The notes under the pieces are model-generated. The model did not search any database and had not been told where the DNA came from. It was given only the letters and a program-made list of their open reading frames with translations. From Escherichia phage JM10, in sequence record PP400777: DNA of 64,000 nt. The stretch is one strand, 5' to 3'. Each line of letters opens with the position of its first letter. Position 1 is the stretch's first letter. Positions 1-40,197 of the stretch are shown one piece after another. Position numbers and translations under genes: made by a program.

Positions 1-207
1 ATGAGGAAGTTTTCCTTTAGATACTAAAGACTTGAATGTTTCATGGTCATACGCAGGCAGAATACATTCGTCAATGGAAGAAGGACGATATTTCTGTTCT
101 AGAATGTGTTCTTTGGAATTGATAGTAATCATGTAATTTTCCTCATTATCATTAAACTGGAGGATTTCTCCTCCATAATCGTATCACAATAAACGTAAAG
201 CTTTGAC

Positions 208-894
208 TTAGAAGTCGTGAGTAGAATCGGCTTCCATCGCAATAACATAACTTACTTGAGAGCTTTCAAACTTAGCTGCAACTTTATCACCAGATCCCCA
301 CAACATTACTTTATAGTTACCTGGCTGGATTTTCATATTAGCCATATTGATTACGAAGTTAAAGTTATTAGAACCGTCATAATCAGTAAGAGTCAAAGAA
401 TACTTAGGACGAGTTAGTCCGGAATCTTCAACTTTATTATAGCCATTGATAACAATTTTACCATCTTTATTTGTAATAGCAATTGTATCAATCTGAAGAC
501 CACGTGAAACTCGAAGTAATTGTTGAAGGTCTTCGGCTTTAATTTCAGTAATCACAGAAGCCACTGGGAATTGAATTGGCTTATTAGGAAAAACAATGGT
601 GCTCTTGTCAGCGGCAGGCCAATAAACTGTGGAACGTGTATCTGCAATTTTAATATTGCCATCAGTGTGCATTGAAATTTCAGCATCATCAGACACTAGA
701 CTCAAAATGCTTAAGAAGCTATTCAAATCATAAAGTGCTACGTCAAAATCAATTTCATCAGAGATATTTGCTTCCGCATAAGTGGTGCCATTAACTGCAC
801 GAGTCATAATAAATTTACCTTGACTCAGCAGAATGCCGGAGTTAATAGAGGCAAAGTTTTTCAGAATAGCGATAGTATCTTTAGACAGTTTCAT
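208..894 (-). CDS. 45: sliding clamp, DNA polymerase processivity factor gp45
   Basis: 228 aa from the second Met (MKLSKDT...), colinear with my recollection of T4 gp45; AGGA RBS 7 nt upstream of ATG at 894; the ORF-track start at 909 is a TTG. Confidence 0.9.
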   Translation of the reverse strand: MKLSKDTIAILKNFASINSGILLSQGKFIMTRAVNGTTYAEANISDEIDFDVALYDLNSFLSILSLVSDDAEISMHTDGNIKIADTRSTVYWPAADKSTIVFPNKPIQFPVASVITEIKAEDLQQLLRVSRGLQIDTIAITNKDGKIVINGYNKVEDSGLTRPKYSLTLTDYDGSNNFNFVINMANMKIQPGNYKVMLWGSGDKVAAKFESSQVSYVIAMEADSTHDF

Positions 895-936
895 TTTATT
901 TCCTTTCAAGACAATTCAAAGTTTATAACAAATTTA

Positions 937-1353
937 TTATGCAGCAACCATCTGCTTTTTAATAGCTTCAGGCAGTGATTCAATATATTCTGGAATTTTA
1001 GAAGCAACAATTTCGCCAGCTGCAATTAGTTGTTCGTCGGCATCAACACAGTAGAAATCTTCAAGGCGTTCAGAACCGTCTTTATCAAGAACGATTTTAG
1101 CACCTGCTTCGATAGAATCTTTATAGTGCTTACGCATCAAATGAATCCACATATCAGACACATCGTTATCAATAAAACCATAAATCATAAAACGAGTTTC
1201 TTGTGGCAAAGATTGGAGTTTTTTAGCACTTGCGTCATCACAATGCAGGACCCATGCTTTACGAACACGATTATGGTTATGCGGGTTAGCGTCAGTACGG
1301 ATAGAAGTAACTTTCAGATCAGCAGCAGTGAAACCTTTAGCAGTAGTAAACAT
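937..1353 (-). CDS. rpbA: RNA polymerase-binding protein RpbA-like
   Basis: 138-aa ORF immediately downstream of gene 45, as in T4; assignment by position and size only. Confidence 0.6.
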   Translation of the reverse strand: MFTTAKGFTAADLKVTSIRTDANPHNHNRVRKAWVLHCDDASAKKLQSLPQETRFMIYGFIDNDVSDMWIHLMRKHYKDSIEAGAKIVLDKDGSERLEDFYCVDADEQLIAAGEIVASKIPEYIESLPEAIKKQMVAA

Positions 1354-1365
1354 ATTATTTCTCTC

Positions 1366-1554
1366 TTATTCGTAGAAGTCGGTAACTGTCCATGCGGAAT
1401 TGCGATTAGACATTATTTTATTATACTCATCTTTAAAAGCAGATTTGAGCATTTGTTCAGTAACAATATGTTCTTCACCTGAAAACGTATTGGTCAAAAC
1501 ATATTTTTTAATTTCAGGGACAACTAGAAGATGTTGGCCAGTTGAATACTCCAT
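1366..1554 (-). CDS. small protein at the gp45.2 position (62 aa)
   Basis: GGAG RBS 6 nt upstream of the internal ATG (MEYSTG...); 62 aa matches the T4 45.2 size; position between 46 and rpbA. Confidence 0.55.
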   Translation of the reverse strand: MEYSTGQHLLVVPEIKKYVLTNTFSGEEHIVTEQMLKSAFKDEYNKIMSNRNSAWTVTDFYE

Positions 1555-1571
1555 GTTGTTCTCCATTTAAT

Positions 1572-1610
1572 TTGATGTGGTCATTATAACCACATCATGT
1601 TAAAGCGTTT
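1572..1610 (-). promoter_or_regulatory. middle-type promoter candidate (MotA-box-like CGCTTTA 12 nt upstream of TATAAT, -10 flanked by 8-bp inverted repeat)
   Basis: Minus strand reads ataaaCGCTTTAacatGATGTGGT TATAAT gACCACATCa; precedes 45.2-rpbA-45. Confidence 0.4.
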
Positions 1611-3297
1611 ATGAAACAGTCATTACCGTAAATCGTCCAACTTTGCTCATTTGAAGATGTTGTCCATAAGCTTGTGGGTCATGGTCTCTGTGACTAATTA
1701 TAAACACGTTTGCATCGGTTAGAGAGTTAAGAATTGTTGAAATAGCTTTAATACCTTCAGAATCAGTCGCGGAATCCATGACTTCGTCCATAATTAATGT
1801 ATTGATTCTAACACCAGAGACCTTTTCAGCGATATCTCGCCATGTAAACAACAATGCGATATCGATACGTGCCTTTTCACCTTGACTAAATGAAGCATAA
1901 CTGAATTCTTCACGTCCACGTGATTTTATAGATTCATTGAATTCTTCGTCAATAGAAAACACATAATCAGCTTCCATGATTTTAAGATAATGGTTAATCT
2001 GCTTGTTGAACAGAGGCACATATTTTTTAATGATAGCACCTTTAATACCAGAATCTTTTAACATATCTGTGATAATACCACGATGGTATTTTTCAAGAAC
2101 GATATCCGATTTTGTTTTAATGATTTTATCAAGTTCTTTTTGAAGCAAAGCTATCTCATCGGCATGGTCGATAAATTCCGCCGAGGCTTGTTCTATTGCA
2201 GCTTTAACTTTCTTAGCTTTATCAATAGTGGCAATCATTGCTTGTTTCTTGGTACGAATATCAGATGCAAGGTCCTGTTTAGTCTTAACATTAGCTCTAT
2301 ATTCGTCCACTAGGACACTCAGATTATCTCTGTGACATGTAAGTTGCTCGAATGAGTGATTACATTCGTGAAGCTTATCGGTAATCTTAGAGACAATAGG
2401 ATCACCCTGGTGCAACTGCGATGCACAAGTAGGACATGTACCACCATCATGATACATCTTAATAACTTTGTTATACGAGTCAATTTTAGATTTAATCAAG
2501 AATGCTTCTTGTCCGATCTTGTTGAATGCCTCAGTAGGGTCTTCATCAAGAACGATATTAAGTAGACGCTCGTTAGCTTCTTCGATTTCTGCTTTTAATG
2601 AACGAGCTTCTTTGGCTAGGTCGTCATACATATTCTGTAGACGCGCTACATTATCACCAGATAATTTCTTTTGACGTTCGATATTCTCGTTATAAATCTT
2701 AATTTGTTGGATAATACCATCTTTCTTGGCATCGAGAACTTGTCCCTGGGAATTAAGTTCTCGAACTTGAGACTTATTGATTTTATCCATTTCAGCGAGT
2801 GTGCCGACTTCTAAAAGGTCTTCGACAAGTTTTCTACGAGCAGGGGTGCTAAGAGCCATGAAAGGGGTATACCCTGCCGTCCCAAGCACAACGATTTGTT
2901 TAAAAGACGCGTATGACATTCCGATGCTACGTTCAAATTCTTCTTGGAAGTCACGACTGCTGGCAGATTCATCGAGACGAACACCGTCAACGGAGATTTC
3001 GAAAATATTGGGCTTTTGGCCACGTCTAATGAAGTATTTTTTATCATCGAATTCCATCCAAAGCTCAACTAAGAGCTCTTTCTTGTTCGTGCTATTAATG
3101 ATTTGTCCTTTCTTAACATCACGAAATGGTTTACCGAAAAGTCCGAAAGTAATGGCTTCTAACATCGTAGATTTACCACCGCCATTTTTACCAGTGATTA
3201 ATGTCTTTTGGACTTTATCTAATTGGATATCAATAGGATTCCCACCTACCGACATGATGTTTTGATAACGAACACGATTTAATTTAAATGATTTCAT
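1609..3297 (-). CDS. 46: recombination endonuclease subunit gp46 (Rad50/SbcC-like ATPase)
   Basis: 562 aa; Walker A GKNGGGKST, zinc hook CPTC, ABC signature FSQGEKAR, Walker B LIMDEV. Confidence 0.9.
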   Translation of the reverse strand: MKSFKLNRVRYQNIMSVGGNPIDIQLDKVQKTLITGKNGGGKSTMLEAITFGLFGKPFRDVKKGQIINSTNKKELLVELWMEFDDKKYFIRRGQKPNIFEISVDGVRLDESASSRDFQEEFERSIGMSYASFKQIVVLGTAGYTPFMALSTPARRKLVEDLLEVGTLAEMDKINKSQVRELNSQGQVLDAKKDGIIQQIKIYNENIERQKKLSGDNVARLQNMYDDLAKEARSLKAEIEEANERLLNIVLDEDPTEAFNKIGQEAFLIKSKIDSYNKVIKMYHDGGTCPTCASQLHQGDPIVSKITDKLHECNHSFEQLTCHRDNLSVLVDEYRANVKTKQDLASDIRTKKQAMIATIDKAKKVKAAIEQASAEFIDHADEIALLQKELDKIIKTKSDIVLEKYHRGIITDMLKDSGIKGAIIKKYVPLFNKQINHYLKIMEADYVFSIDEEFNESIKSRGREEFSYASFSQGEKARIDIALLFTWRDIAEKVSGVRINTLIMDEVMDSATDSEGIKAISTILNSLTDANVFIISHRDHDPQAYGQHLQMSKVGRFTVMTVS

Positions 3298-3548
3298 ATG
3301 TATTCTCTTCGAATGAAGTCCTCTACATATTTTAACATGTCATCCCTATCAGCAAAATATTCATCTAGTTCTGCATACATAACAACACCTGGTGCGTACT
3401 CACAGGTAACATATATTGTTCCAAAGAAACGAGGAGTTGATTCCTCGTAATTCTCAGTCCATTCAACGATACCAATATAACCGTCACCAATACTAAATTC
3501 ATGACGATGGATTTCATAATCAGTCTTCGTCATTATACGCATCCTCAA
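3294..3548 (-). CDS. hypothetical protein (46.1 position)
   Basis: 84-aa ORF between genes 46 and 47; start overlaps the upstream stop. Confidence 0.5.
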   Translation of the reverse strand: MRMRIMTKTDYEIHRHEFSIGDGYIGIVEWTENYEESTPRFFGTIYVTCEYAPGVVMYAELDEYFADRDDMLKYVEDFIRREYI

Positions 3549-3774
3549 TACACGCTTCAGCCATTTTAAGAATAGAGCCGGGAGTATCGTTGTCCATTAT
3601 ATTAAAGCTAAATTCAATAGCCCAGTCGGTGCAGACATGAACTGCTTTAACTTCATTGCCTTCAACACGTAATGGTTCAATCCAATACTTGATAGTGTTC
3701 TCGAATCCATCATCTTTAACGTCTATTTCAACTTCAAGCCCAAGACCAGCATTATTAAATTCATCTAAAGTCAT
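3520..3774 (-). CDS. hypothetical protein (46.2 position)
   Basis: 84-aa acidic ORF; its start overlaps the gene 47 stop. Confidence 0.5.
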   Translation of the reverse strand: MTLDEFNNAGLGLEVEIDVKDDGFENTIKYWIEPLRVEGNEVKAVHVCTDWAIEFSFNIMDNDTPGSILKMAEACIEDAYNDED

Positions 3775-4790
3775 TGTGTCGCCTCAATATAAAGTTCGTT
3801 GGAATATTTGACCAGCGCTTCTCTGTCTTCGTCTGAGATATCTGGAATCGCGTCAATATATTCTTTAATGATATCTTGAAGTGATTTAATCTCGATTTCC
3901 TGGTCGTCATCAGATTCAACACTGTTATCAACTTTAGAAACCATACGAAGAGAGTGAACTACTTTTTCAAGTTCAGATTCAAACTTAGTCAACTCTGAAT
4001 CAATTTCTGATACTATAACACGTACGGCTAGATTAGTATAATCAGAATAATTGATTTTGCCTTTAAATGGATAAGTGATTCGTCGATGCCATGTTGTTTC
4101 ATTAGGAATAAATTCCATACGTTCAACATCAGTGTCAAATACCCAGAATCCGCGAGGGTCGTTCTCATCACCTGCAGTAAGGGTCCATGGTGTCCCAATA
4201 TATTTGACGTTAGCCGCTTCAGAGATTGTGTGGAAGTGGCCGGACCAGACTTGTTTATAGGTCTTTAAGAAATCAGGTTCAAGCCCGTGAGACTTCATCC
4301 CTTTATAGAAATAAAAGCCATTCAGTTCCCAATGACCAACACAATACGCGGCAGAAGAAGTCTTGATGTGCTCTAAGATTTCACCTGTATTTTCTTCGCA
4401 CATCCATGGAACGATATCAATCAGACATCCGTCAAAATCTACAGTAGTCGGATGCTCGTAAATAGTAAAGTTTTCAAATTGAGTTAACAATTCAGAAACA
4501 GTGTTAGGTGTTATTGTATTCTTAAACGCCATGTCATGGTTTCCTATCGTGACATGAACGTGAATGCCTGCTTTAGAAATCATATCAACGATTTCACGAT
4601 TGAATTCCATTGTACGATGTGTTATTGCTTTACGGACGTCAAACCAATCACCGTACTGAATCCAAGTTTTAATCCCGTGTTTCTTAGAGTATTCAATTGC
4701 TTGACGAATACCGTCACGTTGAATATCTTGAACCCATGGGTCGTCTTGTTTGACTCCGATATGGAAGTCGCCTAAGTGCAAAATTTTCAT
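3771..4790 (-). CDS. 47: recombination endonuclease subunit gp47 (Mre11/SbcD-like phosphoesterase)
   Basis: 339 aa; calcineurin-like motifs LHLGDFH and GNHD. Confidence 0.9.
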   Translation of the reverse strand: MKILHLGDFHIGVKQDDPWVQDIQRDGIRQAIEYSKKHGIKTWIQYGDWFDVRKAITHRTMEFNREIVDMISKAGIHVHVTIGNHDMAFKNTITPNTVSELLTQFENFTIYEHPTTVDFDGCLIDIVPWMCEENTGEILEHIKTSSAAYCVGHWELNGFYFYKGMKSHGLEPDFLKTYKQVWSGHFHTISEAANVKYIGTPWTLTAGDENDPRGFWVFDTDVERMEFIPNETTWHRRITYPFKGKINYSDYTNLAVRVIVSEIDSELTKFESELEKVVHSLRMVSKVDNSVESDDDQEIEIKSLQDIIKEYIDAIPDISDEDREALVKYSNELYIEATQ

Positions 4791-4834
4791 ATTATTTCCT
4801 CATTAGTTAATTCATTCTATCATCCGTTTATAAA

Positions 4835-4860
4835 GCAAAAAAGGAACTCCGAAGAGTTCC
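4835..4860 (-). terminator. rho-independent terminator candidate
   Basis: Minus strand GGAACTC-TTCG-GAGTTCC hairpin followed by TTTTTTGC; sits upstream of gene 47. Confidence 0.55.
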
Positions 4861-5072
4861 TATCCACATAGTACACCGTACAAAGGCTCATTTGAACTTT
4901 TAAATCGAATGGGCTTGTATGTAATAGTTCCTTCGGCTTTAGCTTTATCGTAAGACTCTTTAAAACGTCTCATTCTTTCTGCTTTGCCTTTACGGATTTT
5001 ATCGAAATTTTCAGAGGTCAGGTCGTTCGTCATGCATAATCATCTCTCAGAAAATACCTAAACCGATTTCTC

Positions 5073-5294
5073 TCATCGTTTCCACCATTTCTTAACTTGA
5101 AATGAATCAACCCACACGAGTTGTTTTGGGTCAGCCTTTACAATAGGCGGACAAATTTCTGTAATAGAACCGTCGTGATATTCCTTTTCAGAGATTTTAA
5201 CACAAAGAGGACCTCCCAATTTAAGGGTGAACCCTGCGTTCAGCTTCAGACGTTTAAACTTTGTTTGAACTAGCGCCATTAATGATGTCCTCAA
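5073..5294 (-). CDS. hypothetical protein
   Basis: 73-aa ORF in the 47-55 interval; true start may be the internal Met at 5279. Confidence 0.35.
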   Translation of the reverse strand: MRTSLMALVQTKFKRLKLNAGFTLKLGGPLCVKISEKEYHDGSITEICPPIVKADPKQLVWVDSFQVKKWWKR

Positions 5295-5577
5295 TAGCCT
5301 GACGTGTAGTAACCCACTGGATTTTAATTAACTTGTCATTATATGGTTGTCGTAGAATATCCCGAGATTTCTTAATAGCATATTCGTAAGCTTCGAAGTT
5401 GTTTTTAATTGCTGCTTCTTGAGCATGAGCATAAAGACGGTTTAGTTCAAAACGATTCTTTTTAAGAATCTTTTCGGATTTTTTACGTGCTTCAGCTTCA
5501 TTTTTCTTTTGGATTTCTTGTAGCATTTTAGCTACTGCATCTTCTGCTTCTTTATTTTCAATAATCTCGGTAGTCAT
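5254..5577 (-). CDS. hypothetical protein (47.1 position), Lys/Glu-rich
   Basis: 107-aa ORF; no recognisable motif. Confidence 0.5.
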   Translation of the reverse strand: MTTEIIENKEAEDAVAKMLQEIQKKNEAEARKKSEKILKKNRFELNRLYAHAQEAAIKNNFEAYEYAIKKSRDILRQPYNDKLIKIQWVTTRQAIEDIINGASSNKV

Positions 5578-5578
5578 A

Positions 5579-5794
5579 TTATCTCATTAAATTAAAATAA
5601 AAACGTCCATCCTCTTCAATACAGAACTCATACTCAACCGGAGTCCCATTTATCGAAAATGACACGTCATGTGGGTTCAAAGGGTCGATGTCAAAATTAA
5701 TTTTAAATTCACGACCCAACAATTTTACCAAATAAGGGATTGCTTCGTCAAAAGGTTCTTCTAAGTAGTTAGAGATGTCAATTGTCATCCTCAT
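5579..5794 (-). CDS. hypothetical small protein
   Basis: ORF-track ORF 5579..5872 overlaps the gene 55 3' end; trimmed to the internal ATG at 5794. No clear RBS. Confidence 0.3.
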
Positions 5795-6353
5795 ATAAAA
5801 AATCCAAACTAGGCGAATCGCTAACAACTTCCTTCTTTTCAGCCCCAGGAGCTTTATAAGCGGATTCTTCATAACGCGTCATTTTATCGTAGATGTCTTG
5901 AATAAACGTTTCATCTACCAACGCTACCATATCATCGTCATGACTGTCGTAGACATTATGAACGAAGTAACTATATTTCTTTGCAACTTCCTTACGTTCT
6001 TTTTTGATACGTTGGACAAAAGCATTAAAACAAGCTCGAGTTATGTATGCATGTGGGTTATTGTACTTAGTTTCGTCGAAATTATGAAGTCCCTTAATAG
6101 AGGCTTCAATACCATCTGCAATCATCTCCTGCTTCCAAGACTGGGTATATCCTGAAAAGTTGAAACGTTTGGACAGGCCTTCGGCGATAAGCATAATTGC
6201 TAAACCGATGGTATCATTCTGACGAATAATTTTGTTTGGGTCTTTATTATTTAAGAGCTCCTTTTTCCACTCGATTATAGCGGCGAGAAGCTCTTTATTA
6301 TTCACATAGTTATTTTTATGTTTTTGTTCAGTCATAAGTACCTCTTGGCTCAA
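5778..6353 (-). CDS. 55: late-transcription sigma factor gp55
   Basis: 191 aa colinear with my recollection of T4 gp55 (…[32 protein letters not shown]…). Confidence 0.9.
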
Positions 6354-6490
6354 TTCATAGGTCTATTATATCATAATATTTAGAGACCTATCTTAAAGCA
6401 CGAGATACTATCAAAGATACGTAACTTTCATAAAGTTGTCGACTTAAAATTCACTAAACTTTTCTTCGGTTATAGCGATTCAAGATAGTT

Positions 6491-10730: not shown

Positions 10731-11775
10731 CATTATATTCAGCATGAGTCGCAAATTCATGCCCGTTTATATGAAACAACAAAATTTGGATAGTCCATAG
10801 ATATGCAACGTTCTTTTATAGTGCTAGGATGAAAATTTAGCGCTTTAGCTGCTTCTATATAAGACGTATACTTAATACCGTCAACAACCACATATTCAGG
10901 AACTTTATGAATAGTAGTCTTAATACTCAAAACAAGAGGATGAGTTTCGACTTCACTTTCAGTGCAATTTAAATATTCCGCTGCTTTTTTAAAACTTCTA
11001 AAAGTTTTATTTTTAAGCTTTATCGATACTTGTTTTTTACTTTTTCGACTATTGATATTATTTTGCACATGTTCCTTAGATCTTCCGTTTTTAGCATAAT
11101 ATTCAGCTACAGAAGATTTTATATTGTTTTTATGAGATTCGGATAACACTTTACCCTTATGAGCATCTCTTAATTTTTGAATATGTTCTTCAGTATCCGG
11201 ATGCTTATAAAACTTTTTACCGCCTATGGATTTATTTAAACATTTTTTGCTATAAAAATATTTACGTATGACCTCTTCTTCATGTTTTAATGCATCTTTA
11301 TAACTATCAAATGTTTTTAAAATTATCCATTTAGTAGGTGTATCAGTTTTTAAGCGTTCATTTATATACTTAGATGACGTTGTGTAAGTTTTCCAGTTTG
11401 TGGGCTTGTTTTTAATTGTTCTAAATTTTTTATAACCGATATAAATGTCGCCATTAGAAAACTTAACTAAGTATGTAAATGCGTCTTTATCTTTTATTTT
11501 AGTACAACGTCTTTTTATCCATTTCATTGTTTCACCTCGTATTCATAAGATAATCTTATTTATACAAGATGACTGCTGCATGTCGCCATGCAGATTAGAC
11601 TATATCTTCATCTTTCGATGCCGGCCGTTTCGAATAGCATTAGCTTCTATTCTACACCGCTACATTCATCACGGTTAGTCGTTAGGCATTTAGTTCAAAA
11701 GAACATTTAGCACGGGATTGTCTACTAGAGAGGTTCCCCGTTTAGACCGGTTTTACATGAGCCTGAATTAAATTA
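10731..11775 (-). mobile_element. group I self-splicing intron in nrdD carrying a homing endonuclease ORF
   Basis: Conserved group I core on the minus strand (TCTAAACGGGGAACCTCTCTAGTAGACAATCCCGTGCTAAAT, AAATGCCTAACGACTA); P1 pairing of exon UAUGAGU with IGS GCUCAUG gives U-G at the 5' splice site; intron ends …GAATATAATG. Confidence 0.8.
10757..11527 (-). CDS. intron-encoded GIY-YIG homing endonuclease (I-TevII-like)
   Basis: 256 aa; GIY-YIG-like N-terminus (YLVKFSNGDIYIGY), NUMOD3-like basic repeats, I-TevI-like C-terminal DNA-binding module. Confidence 0.8.
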   Translation of the reverse strand: MKWIKRRCTKIKDKDAFTYLVKFSNGDIYIGYKKFRTIKNKPTNWKTYTTSSKYINERLKTDTPTKWIILKTFDSYKDALKHEEEVIRKYFYSKKCLNKSIGGKKFYKHPDTEEHIQKLRDAHKGKVLSESHKNNIKSSVAEYYAKNGRSKEHVQNNINSRKSKKQVSIKLKNKTFRSFKKAAEYLNCTESEVETHPLVLSIKTTIHKVPEYVVVDGIKYTSYIEAAKALNFHPSTIKERCISMDYPNFVVSYKRA

Positions 11776-12313
11776 ACTCATACGCCTGGAATGCATCGTA
11801 TACATCTTTTTCTGTTTTAGATTGAGCATAATTCAACGCATCAGCGATTTGCCATTTTTCTGCATCCTCAATATGTTTTGCATAGGTGCGTTTAACATAA
11901 GGAGAAAGAACTTTATCTACATTCGCAAATGTAGTTCCGCCATACTGGTGTGAAGCAACTTGTGCGGTAATTTGTGCCATAATTGCAGTAGCAACACCAA
12001 TAGATTTAGGCGTTTCAATTTGAGCATTGCCTAATTTAAATCCATTCTCAAGCATCCCCTTTAAATCGACTAAACAGCAATTGGTAAACGGAAGAGCAGG
12101 AGAATAATCAATATCATGCATGTGAATGATTCCACTTTCATGCGCATTCATAATAAAAGACGGGACCATATTTTTGGCAATGTGCTTAGACACAATACCA
12201 GCCATAAGGTCCCGTTGAGTTGGAAAAACACGAGAATCTTTATTAGCATTCTCGTTTAAAAGATCTTTATTAGTTTTATGAATCAGTCCTTCAATTTCTT
12301 TTTCAATTTTCAT
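11776..12313 (-). CDS. nrdD: anaerobic ribonucleoside-triphosphate reductase NrdD, exon 1 (N-terminal part)
   Basis: N-terminal 179 codons; the in-frame stop at 11768 lies in the intron just past the 5' splice site. Confidence 0.85.
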
Positions 12314-14123: not shown

Positions 14124-14428
14124 TATAATGTTCTCTCAAATTTGTGGAAGCATTTACGACATTTCAATTTCAAGTTATCAGTGGTCCAGTTAACCAGTTG
14201 GACTTGGATAGTTCCACATTCCGGACATGGGTGTTTTGCTGCCGATTTGGCAGCATTTTCACGTCGTTCAACCATTTTCATTATTTCGTCCCATGCCGGA
14301 GGAACGAACTCTTCTTCACCGTGGATTTTATTTCTCTGAACAAATTCAATCTTTGAACTATCGTCAATAAACTTAACCAAGCGGTGACTAGTGTTCATAT
14401 CAATATCCTCTAAAAGACGTAGGTTCAT
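14123..14428 (-). CDS. zinc-ribbon protein
   Basis: 101 aa; CPECG…CRKC motif. Confidence 0.5.
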   Translation of the reverse strand: MNLRLLEDIDMNTSHRLVKFIDDSSKIEFVQRNKIHGEEEFVPPAWDEIMKMVERRENAAKSAAKHPCPECGTIQVQLVNWTTDNLKLKCRKCFHKFERTL

Positions 14429-15378
14429 TATAACACCTCAATGGCATTTCGTAAACCATCCGCTTTCGCATTCAGAGCTTTTAACGATTTAGTCTGTTCT
14501 TTAATCTGAGCTTCGACTTCTTTCAGACGAGATTTGAGATATTCGCGTTCTTCTCTTAAGTTATCAACTTTTTCTGCTTTAGGCTCTTTAATAGGCTTAG
14601 GTTTATACGTATTAGGGTTCTTCAGCTTAATTTGAATACGAGAACTGAATAACATTGAACCGTTATCTTCGGATTCGTCGAACGTTTCAACAACATCCAT
14701 AGTCTCTAACAATGTAATAAGTTTATAAGACAACGAACGAACGGTTTTGTTATGCTTATTAATTTCTTCGGCTTTCATGGTACCGAGATTACGTGAGTAG
14801 TAATAAGGAACCTGGATATCAATTGACAATGATGCGTTACCATTACCAGTTGGTTTGAATACTGCAGTAACCCAATCTTTAACATGAACTTTATTTGTAC
14901 GACCATCACCGCCTGTGAATAATTTACGAGAATGTTTAAAAAGCATATTCACTTGGTTATTGAATTCACAAGCAAATTTATCAGCAAATTTAGTTTCAGG
15001 AATGGTAGAGAACCAATCAGCCAAATGAGCCTTTTTAACATCATTAACAATAGTGAATTCAACCAAATCGGTTTTAGATGTCACAGATTTAATAAAGCTC
15101 GGCTTCATAAAGTTTTTGATGTTATCACGAGCTACAGTAGAAGATAATAAACGAGAACGTTTGAACCATTGAAGCAGTGTCCCTAATGAATGAGAATATG
15201 CATTCTGAGTATCTTTACAGATATGATTTTCTTGGCCTGTGTATGTACCAAAATCGCGAAGAATACCACTTACTACATCTCGGTGTGGAACATCAAATCC
15301 TAGTGCACCAGAAGCGCGCTGAGCATGAACGTTAGCGATAAGACCGGCAAAGTATTCAATGTAATGTGAACGTGTCAT
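14428..15378 (-). CDS. hypothetical protein (nrdC.x region), coiled-coil C-terminus
   Basis: 316-aa ORF with long uninterrupted frame. Confidence 0.6.
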   Translation of the reverse strand: MTRSHYIEYFAGLIANVHAQRASGALGFDVPHRDVVSGILRDFGTYTGQENHICKDTQNAYSHSLGTLLQWFKRSRLLSSTVARDNIKNFMKPSFIKSVTSKTDLVEFTIVNDVKKAHLADWFSTIPETKFADKFACEFNNQVNMLFKHSRKLFTGGDGRTNKVHVKDWVTAVFKPTGNGNASLSIDIQVPYYYSRNLGTMKAEEINKHNKTVRSLSYKLITLLETMDVVETFDESEDNGSMLFSSRIQIKLKNPNTYKPKPIKEPKAEKVDNLREEREYLKSRLKEVEAQIKEQTKSLKALNAKADGLRNAIEVL

Positions 15379-31008: not shown

Positions 31009-31965
31009 TTATTTGAAAGGTTTTACAATATTGAAATTTTGTTTGAAACGTTTGACGTAATCATCATGTCCTAAGCTTTGGTACATACTTACTACTTTGC
31101 TGTAGTTTTCCCAGGCATACTCACGGAACCAACCGGAGGTTATGCTTGTACAGACTTTTTCCAATGCCATCATGAAACTGGCTTCAGGGTTAATTTTAAA
31201 GTCATTAGGAATCTGAGAACGTTCTAATGCTAGTACACATGATTCTTCATATACACCGGCCAATTTGACCATTTCTGGTAACGATTCGAACTTCTCGCGT
31301 GAGGTCATTACTTCAGAACCATCTTTCATGTAAAATGTATAAGCCGGACGGTCTGTTAGTGCAATGGCTTCGTGAATAGTATCGTGGTCATATGTATAGA
31401 TGTCATCTTTAAAGAACGCACTTTTAGAAGTGTCAAGAACCGGGTGAGCATAGTTCAAGGTTTCTTTCTGGCGTTTCAGCATAATTTCGGTAAGTTCATC
31501 GTTCAGTGTAACACCTTTACCACGAAGATACTGAATATGGTTCATAGTCTTTAAAAAGAATGGATTATTTTTCTTGAAACGATGAGACATCTTAATTGCA
31601 AGACATATCTCAGGAGTTGCCCAGTAAAACCCGTTCAAACGGTCTTTAGTCAAATTTTTCTTGGCGTATTTTAAAAGGTCATAAGAAGACGTGAAATCTT
31701 CAGGAGTGAGTTCACCGACTAATTCACGGACATTAGTGATTGCCGGAACAATATATGCTTCAAAATGAGTTTCGCGTCCATTATGGAAGCATTTGAAAAC
31801 TTGGACATCAGGGTTATCTTGGTGAACATATACACCCATCATTTGATTTTTGAATGCATTCCAAGAACATTGGTCCGCAATAAAGTCCCAATCACTATTT
31901 TTAATAGCGCTAGAATCAATAAGACCGTGATAGTGAAGTGCACGAGAACCAATAACCAACATCAT
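31009..31965 (-). CDS. hypothetical protein (weak nucleotidyltransferase-like N-terminus)
   Basis: 318 aa; N-terminal IGSRALHYHG…NSDWDF weakly resembles a GS…DxD motif. Confidence 0.55.
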   Translation of the reverse strand: MMLVIGSRALHYHGLIDSSAIKNSDWDFIADQCSWNAFKNQMMGVYVHQDNPDVQVFKCFHNGRETHFEAYIVPAITNVRELVGELTPEDFTSSYDLLKYAKKNLTKDRLNGFYWATPEICLAIKMSHRFKKNNPFFLKTMNHIQYLRGKGVTLNDELTEIMLKRQKETLNYAHPVLDTSKSAFFKDDIYTYDHDTIHEAIALTDRPAYTFYMKDGSEVMTSREKFESLPEMVKLAGVYEESCVLALERSQIPNDFKINPEASFMMALEKVCTSITSGWFREYAWENYSKVVSMYQSLGHDDYVKRFKQNFNIVKPFK

Positions 31966-36880: not shown

Positions 36881-36957
36881 TGGTCGAGGCAGAAGGATTC
36901 TAACCTTCAACCTACGGATTAGAAATCCGTTGCTCTATACAATTGAGCTATGCCTCG
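36881..36957 (-). tRNA. tRNA-Arg (anticodon UCU)
   Basis: Cloverleaf read by eye: acceptor CGAGGCA/TGCCTCG, D stem GCTC/GAGC, anticodon loop TTTCTAA, T arm GAAGG-TTAGAAT-CCTTC, CCA encoded. Confidence 0.8.
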
Positions 36958-36963
36958 AATATA

Positions 36964-37037
36964 TGACCCAGACCAGATTCGAACTGGTAACCTTTCCCTT
37001 ATGAGGGGACTGCTGCTAACCATTGAGCTACAGGGCC
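36964..37037 (-). tRNA. tRNA-Ile2/Met-like (anticodon CAU)
   Basis: Acceptor GGCCCTG/CTGGGTC, anticodon loop CTCATAA, T arm ACCAG-TTCGAAT-CTGGT; the D stem is imperfect as read. Confidence 0.6.
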
Positions 37038-39462: not shown

Positions 39463-40197
39463 TTACCTTAAGATTGTTTCAATTTTAGAATAAAGCTCTT
39501 CTAAAGAGCCGTCGTTTGTAATAACTAAATCGCCTTCTTCAATAGGCAACCCAGCTTCTGTAATATGTTTATCAGTGGATTCCGTACCAGAGCGAACCAC
39601 ATGAATAACTGTAGCACCCATCGCTCTAGCGGTTTCCATTTCATGGACTTGGCGTGTATCGGTTACAATATAGTAATCGAAATCACTTCCAATATAATCC
39701 ATATAGTTTAATGCAAAAAGCTTAACCCAATACATACGGTCAAATAAATTAACGACAACATCCGTACCGAGGGCTTGCATAAGACGGCGGACTGACCATG
39801 TGTCGTTGATATTATTTATAGCTTCACGCAGGACTTCATATGGTTTAATATCTAGATACGAATATCCGCCTTCTAACGATGATAATACTTTAACATTATT
39901 AATCGGTAAATATTGACTTTGCAAATAAATTAGCGCTTCTTCCAATAATTCAATAACATCCAACTTATTGAGATTTAATGGTGTTTCACGGTCATATCCA
40001 ATGCCTTCAAAGTATTCGTATTTCAACTCTGTGAATACATCAGGATTTTCAGCATGCCTACGTCCCCAGGCTATTGCTAGAGCGTCTTTAATTGGATACG
40101 CTAATTGGTATTTTACGGATTTAAAGTTTGAATTGATGTAATCAGCAGTAGTGTCTTTACCGCTACGTTTGATGCCACTTAAAAAGATTAGCTCCAT
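39463..40197 (-). CDS. 1: deoxynucleoside monophosphate kinase gp1
   Basis: 244 aa; P-loop LSGIKRSGKDT; colinear with my recollection of T4 gp1. Confidence 0.9.
   Translation of the reverse strand: MELIFLSGIKRSGKDTTADYINSNFKSVKYQLAYPIKDALAIAWGRRHAENPDVFTELKYEYFEGIGYDRETPLNLNKLDVIELLEEALIYLQSQYLPINNVKVLSSLEGGYSYLDIKPYEVLREAINNINDTWSVRRLMQALGTDVVVNLFDRMYWVKLFALNYMDYIGSDFDYYIVTDTRQVHEMETARAMGATVIHVVRSGTESTDKHITEAGLPIEEGDLVITNDGSLEELYSKIETILR

Follow-up and report, generated by a model that had tools for sequence, protein, structure and literature searches.

In phage T4, the alpha-glucosyltransferase gene a-gt lies between genes 47 and 55, and the question raised by the present locus is what has become of this gene in a T4-like phage whose corresponding interval is far shorter. 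A previous sequence-only reading of the DNA had stated that T4 places an a-gt gene of about 400 aa here, which is correct (400 aa in NC_000866), and had left it undecided whether the phage glucosylates its DNA differently, does not glucosylate it at all, or encodes the gene elsewhere in its genome. Throughout, the window denotes the whole 64-kb stretch of DNA that was analysed.

According to the ORF listing and the raw sequence, the gap between gene 47 and gene 55 spans 987 bp (4791-5777), reaching from the gene 47 start codon to the gene 55 stop codon. Its lower edge is formed by gene 47 (3771-4790, minus strand; 339 aa), encoding an SbcD-like recombination endonuclease subunit, whose position and annotation are as in RB69 and JM17 and whose counterparts in related loci match the Metallophos family of Pfam. 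At the upper edge lies gene 55 (5778-6335, minus strand), encoding the late sigma factor (185 aa from ATG), which is annotated as gene 55 in RB69, JM17, and T4. The gap contains four tightly packed minus-strand ORFs and one terminator, and the previous statement that only small ORFs of 57-107 aa and a terminator are found here is borne out by ORFs of 57, 68, 107, and 71 aa together with a single UUCG hairpin. Non-coding DNA amounts to just 69 nt (4791-4859) plus 39 nt (5034-5072), which leaves no room for a 400-aa gene; between the first small ORF, a homologue of a-gt.2, and gene 47, where an a-gt-type protein of ~400 aa would be expected, there are only those 69 nt.

The four ORFs belong to the families of T4 a-gt.2, a-gt.3, a-gt.4, and a-gt.5 and follow one another in that order, with E values from 2e-28 to 9e-19 in BLASTP comparisons with the T4 proteins and with Pfam and PHROG matches above cut-off. 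The a-gt.2 homologue (4860-5033, minus strand; 57 aa) shares 75% amino acid identity with its T4 counterpart and matches Pfam DUF5486 (E = 4.5e-28) and phrog_2140, whereas the a-gt.3 homologue (5073-5279, minus strand; 71% identity; phrog_1648, E = 2e-34) encodes 68 aa from an ATG, the length also annotated in RB69, or 73 aa from an upstream TTG. The a-gt.4 homologue (5254-5577, minus strand; 107 aa) is 61% identical to the T4 protein and matches Pfam DUF2654 (E = 1.4e-27), and the a-gt.5 homologue (5579-5794, minus strand; 71 aa; 47% identity; Pfam DUF5491, E = 5.8e-13) has a start that overlaps the 3′ end of gene 55. The ORF corresponding to a-gt.4 has been described in six divergent T4-like genomes as conserved and functionally uncharacterised (PMC1524935), and a literature search on the functions of a-gt.2 to a-gt.5 returned nothing past "conserved, unknown". 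Since these four genes persist in a locus that has no a-gt, they are unlikely to depend on glucosylation, their names notwithstanding.

Comparison with T4 shows what is missing. The T4 order is 47, 47.1, a-gt, mobB, a-gt.2, a-gt.3, a-gt.4, a-gt.5, and 55, and the interval measures about 3.15 kb in T4 versus 0.99 kb in the window. Gene 47, a-gt.2 to a-gt.5, and gene 55 occur in the same order in both, the small proteins being 47-75% identical, while T4 has an additional ~2.2 kb comprising mobB, a-gt, and 47.1, for none of which a tblastn match was obtained in the window.

The identity of the phage places this difference in context. The window shares 96-99% nucleotide identity with genomes of Mosigvirus (RB69-like phages) over queries of 3-25 kb, namely the locus and two 25-kb stretches, and its gene order is colinear with theirs, which assigns it to this genus. 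Fourteen relatives were used for closer comparison: RB69, JM17, and twelve contigs of genomic or metagenomic origin whose encoded gp46 or RpbA is identical to that of the window. Positions 1-6412 of the window are colinear with all of them, gapless at the locus, and 97-98.5% identical, and the arrangement of genes 47 and 55 without a-gt is present in RB69, JM17, and 12/12 contigs, that is, in every Mosigvirus relative examined. In RB69 and other members of the genus (JM17, JS09, Bas46/Bas47, and NicPhage), the gene order and the 69-nt spacer with its terminator and predicted promoter are as in the window, with 97.5-99% nucleotide identity across the locus and point differences only, and in the RB69 record these ORFs already bear the names a-gt.2 to a-gt.5. 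A missing a-gt is the expected and published signature of RB69-type phages; it is real but ordinary, and already known. T4-like genomes are mosaic, and no single record matches the whole window: no record in the phage collection is identical to it, and an exact-protein look-up of the window's gp45 returned none. NicPhage is the best match to positions 39001-64000 (98.5%).

Away from the locus, the window differs from RB69 in two respects: its nrdD contains a group I intron that carries a homing endonuclease, and RB69ORF072c is absent. The nrdD gene is split by an insert at 10738-11777 (minus strand) with an intron core at 11576-11811 (Rfam Intron_gpI, 70.9 bits), and the intron ORF (10757-11527) encodes a GIY-YIG homing endonuclease that is 56% identical to T4 I-TevII; the DNA of this region is 72% identical to the nrdD intron region of T4. 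RB69, JM17, and all ten retrieved loci spanning this part of nrdD lack the insert, of roughly 1 kb, and encode an uninterrupted 605-aa NrdD; nrdD is also split in some other Mosigvirus records (F27, G2285, and SQ17). In RB69 and most related contigs, RB69ORF072c (DUF7200, 89 aa) is located between gene 55 and 55.1; it is missing at window positions 6336-6490, as it is in JM17, and RB69 has ~185 bp more than the window at this point.

The spacer between a-gt.2 and gene 47 contains the terminator and a predicted promoter. An intrinsic terminator follows a-gt.2 (4836-4861, minus strand), in which an 8-bp stem (AGGAACTC / GAGTTCCT) closed by a UUCG loop (4861-4842) precedes a run of T; the stop codon of a-gt.2 runs into the hairpin, whose folding energy is -13.9 kcal/mol (z = -4.1 relative to shuffled sequences). 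The consensus of MotA-dependent middle promoters is (a/t)(a/t)(a/t)TGCTTtA located 12 +/- 1 bp upstream of a -10 element TAtaaT (PMC2988021), and positions 4814-4840 (minus strand) fit it in both box and spacing, with a MotA box TTTTGCTTTA at 4840-4831 that is a perfect match, an 11-nt spacer, and a -10 element TAGAAT at 4819-4814. We infer from this sequence that the element may serve as a MotA-type middle promoter for gene 47. In the 64-kb window, the strict MotA pattern has only three matches on the minus strand and none on the plus strand. A second predicted middle promoter of this type (37127-37099, minus strand; ATTTGCTTTA, 12 nt, TATTAT) lies just upstream of two tRNA genes (36884-36957 and 36964-37037; tRNA-Arg and tRNA-Met in the RB69 annotation) and probably corresponds to the middle promoter of the tRNA region in T4.

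The 78-nt junction also bears on whether the missing a-gt might be a deletion or an assembly artefact private to this sequence. In RB69 and the 12 independent contigs, the junction varies only in T-run length and at a single base of the -10 element, and matches to the region at 95% identity or more occur in 134 phage records; a junction shared so widely therefore excludes such a private origin, in favour of which nothing was found and to which we attach practically no probability. An exact-pattern scan of IMG/VR for the junction matched only 2 contigs, too few to be informative. The T run of the terminator (window 4836-4842) comprises between 6 and 11 T in Mosigvirus junctions that are otherwise identical (in comparison with the loci L007, L010, and L017), representing a homopolymer length polymorphism within a regulatory element.

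If a-gt is missing from its usual slot, it could in principle reside elsewhere. Searches by tblastn with T4 a-gt and b-gt, for which T4 served as the positive control, gave no match with E <= 0.01, whether against the window, against the complete RB69 genome, or against the 43-kb JM17 locus and the 12 contigs, so that the 64 kb available for the present phage conform to a Mosigvirus without a homologue of either gene. T4 gp42 matched only RB69 p048, a thymidylate-synthase-like protein with 25% identity. A T4-type glucosyltransferase (a-gt, b-gt, or ba-gt) that has moved outside the window could draw on the about 100 kb of genome located there and on the mosaic nature of T4-like genomes noted above, but the complete RB69 genome contains no match to a-gt or b-gt, and a published BlastP search of RB69 for a-gt, b-gt, and ba-gt homologues was likewise negative (Thomas et al. 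2018, PMC6024577). Furthermore, the modified base of this lineage is 5-hydroxycytosine, not hydroxymethylcytosine, and, with a gene-42 counterpart just 25% identical to T4 gp42, the substrate of a-gt would be missing. We therefore regard a relocated glucosyltransferase as very improbable.

The chemistry of the lineage has been worked out in RB69, whose DNA carries arabinose and in which ORF003c was put forward as a candidate transferase (PMC6024577). The base is 5-hydroxycytosine bearing one or two arabinofuranoses (Lee et al. 2026, PMC13326640). In the same work, gp48 was identified as the 5-hydroxy-dCMP synthase and gp159 as the kinase that phosphorylates its product to the diphosphate, gp46:47 and gp3 were proposed to act as the arabinosyltransferases, two in number, while synthesis of the activated sugar was tentatively assigned to gp51, gp52:53, and gp55 (PMC13326640). 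The Mosigvirus member NicPhage has the same arabinosyl-5-hydroxycytosine chemistry as RB69 (PMC13390438). NicPhage DNA is reported to withstand most type II restriction enzymes but to be cleaved by BrxU, an enzyme of the GmrSD family.

The stretch between uvsX and gene 43, which holds b-gt and 42 in T4, contains arabinosylation genes in RB69 and JM17: a nucleotide kinase, the gp46:47 transferase, a ThyA-like gene, a U32-like gene, a HAD phosphatase, a 561-aa nucleotidyltransferase/kinase, and an arabinose-5-phosphate isomerase. The second RB69 transferase, gp3, is encoded between rIIA.1 and gene 39. An arabinosylation cluster is present in every close relative checked: the isomerase, the 561-aa nucleotidyltransferase/kinase, the HAD phosphatase, and the U32-like gene are found just beyond gene 43 in 14/14 relatives, and the thymidylate-synthase-like gene, which lies farther out, was reached in RB69, JM17, and half of the contigs (6/12). 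The arabinosyltransferase genes themselves were seen in RB69 and JM17 only, the 12 contigs covering the cluster as far as the retrieved DNA extends. In the JM17 locus (L005; 7802-8563 and 16541-17432), a GIY-YIG homing endonuclease gene is located inside the cluster, between the gp51 and gp52:53 homologues, and two extra ORFs that are absent from the window lie between gene 45 and rpbA.

Because the window begins at gene 45, the modification cluster of the present phage would lie ~5-12 kb and more past its left end. Relative to the RB69/DLP3 arabinosyl-5-hydroxycytosine system (gp3, gp45-gp55, and gp159), the window shares the kinase, and the synthase, sugar-activation, and transferase genes are located outside it. 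This kinase, the product of gene 1 (39463-40197, minus strand), is a dNMP kinase of the RB69 type (Pfam DNMK, E = 2.6e-96; 95% identical to RB69 gp159) and represents the sole known component of the pathway inside the window. By analogy with relatives that are 97-98.5% identical, the present phage would possess the same arabinosylation cluster and the same DNA chemistry.

The same data address the possibility that the DNA is not glycosylated at all, the transferases having been lost and the cytosine being either a bare modified base or unmodified. No transferase gene was found in the window, as this reading would predict, but 14/14 close relatives keep at least the gene 43-adjacent part of the sugar-activation cluster that was reached, the number of records with homologues of gp3 is similar to that with 47-55 loci of the Mosigvirus type, and the window retains a dNMP kinase 95% identical to RB69 gp159. 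A loss of glycosylation consequently appears highly unlikely.

A DNA glycosyltransferase might also have gone unrecognised among the a-gt-sized ORFs of the window, the candidates being 31009-31965 (318 aa) and 14428-15378 (316 aa). In Pfam searches, the a-gt-sized window ORFs matched an AAA ATPase, an RlaP-type nucleotidyltransferase, DUF7275/DUF7277, or nothing, and no glycosyltransferase domain was detected among them; this negative result is weak because the true arabinosyltransferases of RB69 and JM17, used as controls, give no Pfam match either. The 318-aa protein (minus strand), of the RB69ORF134c type, contains DUF7277 and DUF7275, belongs to phrog_2141, and is of unknown function. A PDB sequence search with it yielded nothing meaningful, and its single-sequence AlphaFold model (mean pLDDT 38.8) is too poor to judge the fold. 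The candidates, then, have no known function, a genuine transferase could be just as invisible to Pfam, and structure prediction gives no guidance for the 318-aa ORF. Against this, the 318-aa family extends over 733 phage records, from Straboviridae to phages of Pseudomonas, Ralstonia, Streptomyces, and Gordonia, and its presence in such unrelated hosts and phages with unrelated DNA chemistry argues against a modification-specific role. The 316-aa ORF and a 331-aa ORF appear, from their position on the RB69 map, to be nrdC.5 and nrdC.6, which also occur in T4, and tblastn of the window with a-gt, b-gt, and RB69 gp3 gave only chance-level matches. Moreover, two transferases already explain the mono- and di-arabinosyl products (PMC13326640). 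A hidden transferase in the window is accordingly given very little credence.

Overall, the present phage is very probably an RB69-like (Mosigvirus) relative of T4 without a-gt that carries arabinosylated 5-hydroxycytosine instead of glucosyl-hydroxymethylcytosine, the RB69-like group having no a-gt because its cytosines are decorated with arabinose by enzymes encoded elsewhere. Among the three options left by the sequence-only reading, different modification, and not with glucose, is the one that agrees with the Mosigvirus affiliation, the lack of a-gt and b-gt homologues in the window and RB69, and the published arabinosyl-5-hydroxycytosine, which is ascribed to unrelated-looking GT-B transferases (PMC6024577, PMC13326640, PMC13390438); a relocated a-gt does not, and "elsewhere" applies only to functional analogues. 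In the proposed pathway, hydroxymethylcytosine would not be glucosylated in this phage, and cytosine would be replaced by 5-hydroxycytosine, by analogy with RB69 and NicPhage. 5-Hydroxy-dCMP would be made as a mononucleotide by the thymidylate-synthase-like synthase and then phosphorylated by the dNMP kinase encoded by gene 1, and two putative GT-B arabinosyltransferases would add one or two arabinofuranoses from a nucleotide-activated donor, proposed to be UDP-arabinose. The other pathway genes would be placed between uvsX and gene 43 and between rIIA and gene 39. At the locus itself, the slot between a-gt.2 and gene 47 is empty in Mosigvirus, with Tequatrovirus and Jiaodavirus keeping a-gt there; a-gt.2 to a-gt.5 remain, and a single hairpin with its predicted MotA-type promoter joins a-gt.2 directly to gene 47.

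How this arrangement came about may be reflected in the junction. T4 has two terminator-plus-middle-promoter cassettes, one after a-gt.2 and one after a-gt, which flank mobB/a-gt and whose predicted start sites coincide with the mapped PmobB (38682) and P47 (36576), whereas the window has one cassette and no module. The T4 hairpin after a-gt.2 also has a UUCG loop, and its stem differs from that of the window by base changes that preserve pairing (GGAGC/GCTCC). Homology between the window and T4 extends from a-gt.2 through the hairpin as far as the MotA box. In local alignments, the left half of the window cassette clearly resembles the a-gt.2-side cassette of T4 (0/500 shuffles as good), whereas the resemblance of the right half to the 47.1-side cassette is marginal (12 of 500 shuffles align as well) and that to the mobB-side cassette is not significant (71/500). 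These alignments are no more than suggestive of a hybrid Mosigvirus cassette, with a left part like the a-gt.2-side copy and a right part like the 47.1-side copy of T4.

PeSL terminator/promoter cassettes have been proposed to drive module exchange in T4-like phages (PMC2839356, PMC4122927). Like them, the window element has a stem-loop terminator directly before a predicted promoter, at the edge of a module found in some related phages and missing from others; unlike them, its promoter is of the MotA-dependent middle type and not an early promoter. We tentatively consider that the single cassette upstream of gene 47 could be a scar left when an exchangeable module, consisting of a-gt alone or together with mobB and bracketed in Tequatrovirus by two cassette copies, was lost or acquired. 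The middle-promoter cassettes would then have recombined in a PeSL-like manner, and the replacement of b-gt/42 by the arabinosylation cluster may have accompanied this event; the scenario is conceivable, albeit somewhat doubtful.

Homologues of a-gt occur in 657 phage records. In about 500 of them, from Tequatrovirus, identity is at least 90%, and in about 143, mostly from Klebsiella phages, it is 60-80%; in both RB27 and the Jiaodavirus Klebsiella phage Mineola, the gene occupies exactly the T4 slot between a-gt.2 and 47. RB69 gp3 homologues were found in 211 records, comprising 155 at 95% identity or more and 56 in Acinetobacter phages at about 43%. The number of gp3 records at this higher level (155) is close to that of records matching the window's 47-55 region at 90% or more (~153). 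From these record distributions, glucose-type and arabinose-type modification appear to divide along genus lines.

The chemistry and genes of this lineage were published between 2018 and 2026, and the present addition is a tidy description of the junction only. Which restriction, CRISPR, and type IV systems are able to attack a phage depends on the sugar carried by its cytosines, so recognising whether a phage is of the arabinose or the glucose type is useful for phage therapy and engineering.
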